IMG/VR virus record: IMGVR_UViG_2531839666_000014
DNA: 64,000 nucleotides
DNA from: a virus
Taxonomy: Duplodnaviria; Heunggongvirae; Uroviricota; Caudoviricetes
Strand: one strand, 5' to 3'
Numbering within the stretch: the stretch's first letter is position 1; each line of letters opens with the position of its first letter. A program made the position numbers. Of this stretch, positions 63,001 to 64,000 are shown one piece after another.

Positions 63001-64000
63001 CTGTTTAATACGTGGATCAGGGCTGTCGAATGTATCCGGTAATGGCAGTCCCTCACCGTATGACATACCATTGGACTGACCAGCAAGCGCGATCACATAG
63101 TAATATTCTGGCGCAACAGAAGGCGCTGAGGTCGTCGGACGGTTGCCTGGCTCCTCTGGTGATGAGATGCTCCCCTCACTCACAACTGGCTGGATGAACT
63201 CCGCACCATAACCAGCTGTCGAAATCAGCGCACTACCATAAGGCTGCCACCCTTCCTTCAGTTTTTGAGTTATTCGTTCCGCAAGGTCTGACGGCGACGC
63301 CGCCCTGACCACGTCATAGTGTTTAAATGCCATGAATCCTCCCGGCCGGGATAATGTACTGAATAAGATAAGGAGTGAGCGGAAGTCCCGAAATACAAGG
63401 GAAAAAGACAACCACCCGCAAAAAAGAAATACACTCCTCACAGTTGCGCAGGGTGATTACTGTAAGGTATTATTCGCAGCGTTAATTAATTGTTCATATT
63501 GCTTTTCTTCTTGCCAACCGCTCTTCCCGGGGCGGCTTTTTTTGCATGTAAAAAGGCCCCTGCTATGAGGGGCCCTGATATATGCCTAATCTCTGTATAC
63601 TGCATGGTGCCGGGTGCCTCCCGGTGAGTTCGGCCTGGTGCCACCAAACCCGCGTATTCTCGCTTACGATCATCAAAGAGATCATACCATTCACCAGTCG
63701 CCCCTCCGCACAGGGGGATTCACCATGCAGGATTTTTTTAACAAATTCGCAGCCAAGCAGACAACCGTCAACTACCTGAATTGTGAGTGATTTAACATTT
63801 CACTGCCCAGTGTCTTCCCCTCATTAAAAAGCCCCTCCGGAGAGGGGCTGGAGAGTAGCGCTATGTACCGTTCATTGCATGGTGCCGGGTGCCTCCCGGT
63901 GAGTTCAGTATCAGCACCTGAACCCGCACAGAAAGGATAGAGGTAAAACAGAAACACCTGTGACGCTGATATGCCCCGCCGCTCAGGGGGATTCACCATG

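Follow-up and report, generated by a model that had tools for sequence, protein, structure and literature searches.

Two tandem STnc100 small RNA genes with a covarying pseudoknot upstream of a nanS-p-type gene in a lambdoid prophage

The window analyzed here is the whole 64,000-nucleotide (nt) stretch of a Caudoviricetes virus (IMG/VR record IMGVR_UViG_2531839666_000014), and its right-hand end raises the question of whether two similar, palindromic elements on the minus strand, upstream of a nanS-p-like gene, function as RNA or as DNA. A first-pass annotation of the sequence had described them as a pair of ~127-bp elements with terminators, and had proposed either structured RNAs or repeats like ERIC (enterobacterial repetitive intergenic consensus) in the leader of the late operon. 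Here, the first element (copy 1, 63601-63731) is called copy A, and the second (copy 2, 63876-64000) is called copy B. We found that the pair represents two tandem, complete, and separately terminated gene units of the STnc100 small RNA (sRNA) family, Rfam RF02076. Our favored reading, which we hold to be very probable, is that both act in trans as Hfq-associated sRNAs.

Identity of the paired elements

Positions 62000 to 64000 were scanned with Infernal against all Rfam models at a relaxed cutoff (E<=10), as the first-pass annotation had suggested, and both copies matched RF02076, as follows.

63544-63757, minus strand: STnc100 copy A, full match to RF02076 (198.4 bits)
63819-64000, minus strand: STnc100 copy B, 5' end cut (116.8 bits); the first G of its closing stem would be position 64001

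The match of copy A covers model positions 1-206 (E 2.9e-47) and that of copy B positions 31-206 (E 2e-26), the 5' end of the latter being cut by the window; the complete copy B of locus L001, from the chromosome of Escherichia coli 2013C-3033, reaches 138.7 bits. All of these scores are far above the curated gathering score of the family, 47 bits, and the STnc100 consensus helices (closing stem, H1, H4, H5, and a terminal Rho-independent terminator) were found in the elements. Since the helices also covary, the earlier suggestion of structured RNA elements was well founded.

The sequence beyond position 64000 could be viewed in the identical or near-identical loci L001 and L192, where Q, stx1A, and stx1B lie upstream. 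L001 is 99.7% identical to the window over 701 nt, and phage phiSTEC1589-Stx1c shows 100% identity to a 217-nt copy A query; in both, the gene order is Q, stx1A, stx1B, copy B, copy A, SASA esterase, holin, and lysozyme. The elements thus occupy the lambdoid prophage position between Q and the late promoter, on one side, and the lysis genes, on the other. The first-pass annotation was right to place them within the late operon; however, because they lie downstream of the toxin genes, they belong to the moron region between stxB and nanS-p (L001 and L192) and not to the operon leader.

The STnc100 family is already known, and its position beside stx is well described. Besides the Rfam entry RF02076, it includes EcOnc27 of strain Sakai, also named sRNA103 (Gruber & Sperandio 2015; PMC7873438), with PasD as a diverged relative. 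In O157 Sakai, with its crosslinking peak converted to current coordinates, EcOnc27 was Hfq-crosslinked over the 3' strand of the closing stem (P1), the linker, and the terminator, and was northern-positive at ~235/247 nt (Tree et al. 2014; PMC4104026). In strain EDL933, 11 STnc100 copies are expressed, one of them confirmed by northern blotting. PasD1 and PasD2 are sRNAs of enteropathogenic E. coli (EPEC) found by Hfq RIL-seq (in which interacting RNAs are ligated and sequenced), with a UGUGAG seed in the linker between the structured domain and the terminator, and it has been concluded that STnc100 and PasD1/PasD2 descend from a common ancestor (Zhu, Shabalina, Storz, bioRxiv 2026).

The repeat features that had drawn attention to the region were confirmed. 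As seen in a repeat search, the copies share a 31-nt block with 100% identity (63601-63631 and 63876-63906) and a second block of 28 nt with 93% identity (63700-63727 and 63973-64000). Copy A has a terminal inverted repeat with 13-nt arms (63597-63609 and 63721-63733) that are 92% complementary, including the perfect 10 bp CTGCATGGTG/CACCATGCAG, and the window indeed stops within copy B, with the first G of its closing stem as the next base.

A ~127-bp core, an imperfect palindrome with a terminal inverted repeat of 10 to 13 bp, and the 10-mer GTGAATCCCC, which is found in ERIC, are also what would be seen in a DNA-level repeat, either of the ERIC/IRU (intergenic repeat unit) type or a miniature inverted-repeat transposable element (MITE). 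ERIC copies were therefore retrieved by the ERIC1R/ERIC2 primer core and confirmed as 100% identical in E. coli genomes. Compared with a genuine, full ERIC copy (ybhJ-ybhI), the elements have only the 10-mer in common, with a score reached by 4-10% of shuffles, so that similarity to the consensus does not extend across the element and the ERIC-like label was rejected. The niche and the unit also differ: the ERIC core was present in 5426/5426 E. coli genomes (median, 9 places), in core intergenic regions such as the ybhJ-ybhI spacer, whereas our elements occur only in prophage late regions and are not dispersed through the core genome. Within the 64-kb window, GTGAATCCCC occurs only twice, both times in the STnc100 copies. 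A MITE was likewise rejected: what is repeated is a whole gene of ~270 nt, including promoter-like sequence and a terminator, it is found in a single prophage niche, and its helices show the covariation of an RNA. Overall, we assign a DNA-level repeat a negligible probability.

A coding function has also been implied by a database record. In PQ600364.1 (21400-21833; L192 3336-3635, plus strand, and 3617-3769, minus strand), two "hypothetical protein" coding sequences are drawn over the STnc100 copies, which are probably spurious calls; most other phage records leave the region unannotated. ATG codons do occur in both P1 strands, open reading frames (ORFs) of 43-75 amino acids overlap the copies, and some EDL933 copies have appreciable ribosome footprints. 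Nevertheless, the frame opened by the P1 ATG ranges from 8 codons in PasD to 11 in copy A and 75 in copy B, it has no upstream Shine-Dalgarno sequence, and variation among relatives keeps base pairs rather than codons. Small protein-coding genes were thus rejected for lack of conserved ORF length, and this reading is hardly credible. The tRNA genes that the first-pass annotation had kept in mind can be excluded as well, since ARAGORN detected no tRNA or tmRNA gene in positions 60000-64000 and the Rfam scan gave no tRNA match at E<=10.

A pseudoknot in the 5' domain

The internal hairpins noted earlier in copy A are real, with a minimum free energy (MFE) of -75.7 kcal/mol (z = -3.5), and 0/200 shuffles folded equally well. 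The following structured features were delimited in the two copies.

63600-63730, minus strand: structured 5' domain of copy A, from the MFE fold, the Rfam consensus structure, and pair counts on 59 distinct homologues
63635-63697, minus strand: pseudoknot of copy A, CUGGUG (63697-63692) with CACCAG (63640-63635) in the H4 loop
63909-63971, minus strand: pseudoknot of copy B, UAUCAGC (63971-63965) with GCUGAUA (63915-63909) in the H4 loop

In copy A, P1 pairs 63728-63721 with 63609-63602 and reaches 10 bp if extended to 63730/63600; H1 pairs 63716-63712 with 63705-63701, H4 pairs 63651-63644 with 63633-63626, and H5 pairs 63624-63620 with 63614-63610. The H4 arms of copy B lie at 63925-63918 and 63908-63901. 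No non-canonical pairs were flagged in the Rfam alignment of copy A, and the MFE folds of the copies reproduce the helices. As a whole, the 5' domain is a four-way junction with tRNA-like connectivity and a covarying pseudoknot.

To gather relatives, the pattern CATGGTGAATCC-N(65-95)-CGGGAGGC was used on species-representative genomes and on IMG/VR, with at least 120 loci in the latter, and the 59 distinct cores obtained were aligned (alignment A2). The pattern sample is without the founding Salmonella members of STnc100, and the pseudoknot evidence is hence that of non-Salmonella relatives. Across the family, a stretch of 6-9 nt immediately 3' of H1 can pair with the H4 loop, in about eight compensating sequence classes: CUGGUG/CACCAG (copy A), UAUCAGC/GCUGAUA (copy B), AUCAGU/ACUGAU, AAUGAUC/GAUCAUU (PasD), AAUGAC/GUCAUU, CUGGCU/AGCCAG, CCAGUC/GGCUGG, and UCAGCA/UGCUGA. 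In A2, 93% of the cells were paired, versus 35-45% when the 3' partners were slid, and two-sided changes were observed at 6/6 pairs of the pseudoknot and 7/8 pairs of H4. The register of the pseudoknot is shared by 36 rows, which pair 6/6, while 14 rows pair in a register one alignment column off.

Because one MAFFT alignment could not keep all pseudoknot classes in register, a class-swap duplex test was added. With one representative per class, strands paired with their own partners at a mean of -9.6 kcal/mol, and 0/1854 derangements did as well; with all representatives, own partners reached -9.9 kcal/mol versus -3.9 kcal/mol for partners taken from different classes. In L021 and L071, the 5' strand of the pseudoknot forms a nested helix instead, and no pseudoknot-type pairing was seen in L033 (5344-5452). 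The pseudoknot is unmentioned in the 2026 Pas preprint and absent from the cmscan consensus structure, where a weak 3-bp helix is placed on the 5' strand of the pseudoknot instead. Overall, these results indicate that the STnc100 5' domain holds a pseudoknot between the H4 loop and the strand 3' of H1, supported by covariation.

Transcription units and proposed mode of action

Downstream of the 5' domain, each copy continues into a 3' module, and copy A is preceded by a promoter-like element.

63735-63764, minus strand: promoter-like element of copy A, TTGTCT (63764-63759), an 18-nt spacer ending in TGT, and TAAAAA (63740-63735)
63577-63601, minus strand: single-stranded linker of copy A, with the putative seed AGUAUACAGAGAUUAGGCAUAUAUC, unpaired in the fold
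63550-63576, minus strand: intrinsic terminator of copy A (9-bp stem, 6-nt loop, U5)
63850-63876, minus strand: linker of copy B, with the putative seed AAUGAACGGUACAUAGCGCUACUCUCC, unlike that of copy A by sequence comparison
63826-63849, minus strand: intrinsic terminator of copy B (8-bp stem, UCCG loop, U5)

Both terminators had been proposed before and were recovered here. That of copy B (63849-63826) is AGCCCCTC-TCCG-GAGGGGCT followed by TTTTT and was found by the terminator scan; that of copy A (63576-63550), AGGGCCCCU-CAUAGC-AGGGGCCUU followed by a U-tract, was missed by the scanner and seen in the MFE fold and the Rfam alignment. As each copy has its own conserved promoter-like upstream sequence and its own terminator, we read copies A and B as independent sRNA genes.

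The start of transcription is less well defined. Across 63 distinct upstream regions, conservation in the block TTTGTTAAAA (-17 to -8) is 86-94% for most positions and 59-60% for three. TTGNCT is found 18 nt upstream of TAAAAA in many copies, and a relaxed regular expression matched 21/63 upstream regions. This geometry places +1 at the first G of P1, which is the RNA-seq-estimated 5' end of PasD1 and PasD2; in copy A, G63728 lies 6 nt after TAAAAA. If +1 is the first G of P1, positions 1-30 of the Rfam model would be promoter DNA. A -10-like TTAAAT is also present at 63795-63790, part of a TGTAAT/TTAAAT motif common to both window copies and Sakai. The RNA of copy A would therefore probably run from ~63728/63730, or from an upstream start at ~63783, to the U-tract at 63550. 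The promoter of copy A is predicted from sequence, and its RNA has two candidate 5' ends. The EcOnc13 probe (supplement of Tree et al.) was absent from all fetched loci, including the PasD homologue of Sp3, and was not used for the 5' end.

The 3' modules vary independently of the cores. A single core class can be joined to several linker/terminator modules, and a single module to several core classes; moreover, mosaic intermediates join an STnc100 core to a promoter and tail of PasD type. Copies A and B themselves differ in linker, insert, and pseudoknot sequence and, having different linkers and inserts, should have different targets.

For the window copies, identity, structure, covariation, and genomic context are direct observations; their expression, Hfq binding, and use of a seed are modeled on the homologues, as follows. 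In the lysogen, each gene would be transcribed from its own sigma-70-type promoter and transcription would end at its own terminator. Copy B might also be made as the 3' end of stx1 transcripts. No intrinsic terminator was found in L001 between the stxB1 stop and copy B (6703-6817, minus strand), so the copy B terminator is the first after stx1; transcripts from the stx1 promoter would end there, and copy B could then also be produced as an RNA derived from the 3' untranslated region. A compact 5' domain of ~125 nt, closed by P1 and made of H1, H4, H5, a variable insert, and the pseudoknot, would stabilize the RNA or have another role, while the 3' module would consist of a ~25-nt single-stranded linker and a GC-rich intrinsic terminator with a U-tail. 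Hfq would bind the linker and the U-tail, and the linker would provide the seed for pairing with mRNAs in trans; in EcOnc27 and EcOnc13, the corresponding segments bear Hfq peaks in crosslinking and analysis of cDNA (CRAC), and the PasD seed maps to the same place. After induction, neither terminator would stop Q-modified RNA polymerase, which would go on to transcribe nanS-p and the lysis genes.

Alternatively, the elements could work in cis, as attenuators or riboswitch-like leaders that govern how far transcription in the lysogen continues into nanS-p and the lysis genes. This would fit the placement of an aptamer-like domain, a linker, and an intrinsic terminator upstream of nanS-p on the same strand (copy A; also PasD2 of EPEC), or upstream of the holin gene (PasD1). 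The H1 and terminator helices of copies A and B have CCCCU/AGGGG arms in common that could swap partners. However, this similarity is absent in PasD, L019, L034, and L113, and there is thus no conserved switch; a riboswitch-type strand swap between H1 and the terminator was rejected because it is not conserved across the family. What follows copy B is another sRNA gene, not a coding gene, and a convergent sRNA gene with its terminator usually lies between the element and the next gene. Furthermore, the late genes of lambdoid phages are driven by Q antitermination, which ignores terminators. We therefore regard a leader of this kind as very unlikely.

Several points weigh against the action in trans that we favor. 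Base-pairing sRNAs usually conserve the seed best; here, the structured domain and its loops are the most conserved parts and the linker is the most variable, a pattern to be expected of a protein- or ligand-binding RNA no less than of a scaffold. P1, H1, and H5 hardly vary in A2, although the little covariation in P1 and H5 is explained in part by the search pattern, which fixed the 5' strand of P1 and part of H5, and covariation in H1 is present in L113. The -10 element lacks the usual T at -7, and the EcOnc27 northern signal of ~235/247 nt, not ~185 nt, implies a start ~50-60 nt further upstream. The expression of either copy in this strain is assumed, no STnc100 member has a validated target, and the effect of sRNA103 on fimZ and espA was reported without demonstrated direct pairing (PMC7873438).

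These points lead to the possibility that the pseudoknotted 5' domain is itself the functional part, as a protein-, ligand-, or ribosome-binding element or a sensor, with the linker and terminator serving only for expression and termination and the Hfq chimeras being secondary. The strongest conservation falls on unpaired or loop positions, namely, GGUGAAUCC, the H1 loop GNGCGG, and the H5 loop AGGCA, which are upper-case in the Rfam consensus and kept even in the diverged PasD, while linkers are freely swapped; the four-way junction and its covarying pseudoknot also suit such a role. Nevertheless, the search pattern imposed part of the apparent invariance, no partner is known, and no ribozyme or riboswitch family of Rfam matched at E<=10 in positions 62000-64000. 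In addition, both the crosslinks to Hfq and the chimeras from RIL-seq fall on the linker and terminator. This reading seems unlikely to us. The related and slightly less doubtful idea is that the STnc100/PasD 5' domain is a dedicated fold that binds a host or phage protein or a ligand instead of being a passive scaffold. If this is true, phages would swap 3' seed/terminator modules and inserts onto such a fold, and the tandem pair would provide two specificities on one scaffold. Our preferred reading continues to be that of two Hfq-associated sRNAs acting in trans.

Genomic setting and comparison with known systems

Two further features adjoin copy A in the window, one on each strand.

61423-63333, minus strand: nanS-p-type esterase gene (Pfam DUF1737, SASA, and DUF6645), labeled a SASA family carbohydrate esterase in L001 and L192
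63444-63543, plus strand: candidate convergent sRNA of ~64 nt at the AsxR position, from the terminator scan, the fold, and an alignment with the Sakai AsxR locus

The Pfam domains bear out the description of the downstream ORF as nanS-p-like. On the minus strand downstream of copy A, nanS-p is followed by genes for holin, lysozyme, and Rz. The ATG at 63333 is the annotated start of nanS-p in identical or near-identical records, whereas the ORF called mechanically opens at GTG 63441; its 36 extra codons (63334-63441) overlap the promoter of the plus-strand candidate and are probably untranslated. Between nanS-p and holin, a search of the window for a PasA/PasC-like sRNA gave no match to the complement of the PasA northern probe with up to three mismatches.

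Matches were found in 367 phage records, almost all of Stx-converting phages, and in 2769/5426 complete E. coli genomes, a genome having as many as 12 places. In about 970 of the complete E. coli genomes, a place spans 80% or more of the 701-nt two-copy region. Tandem pairs were found on 14/136 locus strands, with a spacing of 267-273 nt or 467-483 nt. In species-representative genomes, genuine matches to the core pattern were seen only in Enterobacteriaceae (E. coli/Shigella, E. albertii, E. ruysiae, Klebsiella, Enterobacter, and Phytobacter), and most non-enterobacterial matches of the genome scan were chance hits in GC-rich genomes and were discarded. A contig of 888 nt labeled Xanthomonas pisi DSM 18956 (L062; NZ_JPLE01000080.1) carries an STnc100 core, an EcOnc27-type tail, and an AsxR-type convergent terminator, an arrangement like that of E. 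coli Stx phages, and is probably a contamination of that assembly.

Genes for tRNAs lie a few hundred bases upstream of STnc100 in E. albertii, E. coli ECMA0423, and E. ruysiae (L033, 4825-5482, minus strand; L058; L043), which suggests that STnc100 tracks the tRNA/moron region downstream of Q; Sakai offers a parallel, with ileZ-argN-argO upstream of stx2. Elsewhere in the window, Rfam matches at the gathering score were sok antitoxin RNA (26313-26487, plus strand, 111.5 bits), the ALIL pseudoknot of an IS3-family element (399-515, minus strand, 95.3 bits), DicF (5387-5438, plus strand, 72.5 bits), and sRNA-Xcc1 (23319-23403, plus strand, 53.0 bits, exactly at the threshold).

STnc100 genes flank Shiga toxin genes, and variants of STnc100/EcOnc27 downstream of stx2 were recently reported as predictors of hemolytic-uremic syndrome (PMC12711010). 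Outer-membrane vesicles also carry the RNA out of the cell (PMC12370729). What the present analysis adds to the known family is modest: a covarying pseudoknot, the mosaicism of cores and tails, the possibility that Rfam positions 1-30 are promoter DNA, and a rare convergent sRNA candidate. The pseudoknot and the mosaicism provide handles on the function of an abundant phage-borne RNA, through compensatory mutants and natural chimeras, respectively. For annotation, the region should be labeled as two STnc100 genes and a possible convergent sRNA, instead of hypothetical proteins (PQ600364) or ERIC.

When the elements are set beside known systems, one likeness is to tRNA. The 5' domain has a closing stem, then a short joiner, a D-arm-like hairpin, a central arm, and a 5-bp hairpin abutting the 3' strand of the closing stem (...GGCACCA). 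However, its "T-like" loop has 5 nt, its closing stem has 8 bp, it lacks an anticodon arm, and it contains a pseudoknot, so that the likeness is topological only.

The plus-strand segment invites comparison with AsxR and AgvB (RF02703 and RF02702). At least eight Sakai prophages have been described as carrying "dyads", in which convergent sRNAs that bind Hfq lie between PR' and the lysis genes (Tree et al. 2014). In Sakai Sp5, the order is stx2B, a single STnc100 (EcOnc27, 207.7 bits), convergent AsxR, and nanS-p. The candidate has TTGCGC (63444-63449), an 18-nt spacer, TATTAT (63468-63473), and a predicted start at ~63480, followed by a U-rich unstructured body and a terminator stem at 63518-63535 with U7. 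It shares with AsxR its position, the CAGTTGCGCAG context of the -35, the position of the -10, and the back-to-back terminators, but its RNA body and terminator are unrelated in sequence to AsxR/AgvB, and the conserved 3' region of ~42 nt gave no match at E<=10 (88 bits for the Sakai locus). As the variant occurs in 17/5426 complete E. coli genomes, it may be considered a candidate for a rare convergent sRNA. In Sakai Sp5, just upstream of nanS-p (L188, 2709-2735, plus strand), there is a hairpin with a U-run, GGCUGCGCAACUGCGCGGCCUUUUU, that resembles the PasD terminator GGCUGCGCAUUGCGCAGCC and overlaps the AsxR promoter region; it may be a recombination remnant of a PasD-type 3' end.

The counterpart of copy A in Sakai Sp5 is EcOnc27, with which it shares a near-identical linker and terminator, the same pseudoknot class, and 85% identity to the VT2-Sakai sequence. 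Both are the first sRNA unit upstream of nanS-p and lie downstream of stxB. In contrast to EcOnc27, the window belongs to an Stx1c-type and not an Stx2a-type phage and has two tandem units instead of one, and copy B differs from EcOnc27 in insert, pseudoknot class, and linker.

PasD1 and PasD2 (EPEC E2348/69; EcOnc13 in Sakai Sp3) share the architecture, the blocks GCAUGGUGAAUCC and CGGGAGGC, and a pseudoknot, AAUGAUC/GAUCAUU, and PasD2, like copy A, immediately precedes the SASA esterase gene. However, against the STnc100 model they score 41 and 38 bits, below the threshold; their insert is shorter, their H5 is degenerate, and both their linker (seed UGUGAG) and their terminator are different. 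The window copies have only the core blocks in common with them and show no near-identity to the UGUGAG linker or the GGCUGCGCA terminator. By sequence, PasD is thus a related subfamily and not the same gene, and the window copies belong to STnc100 proper.

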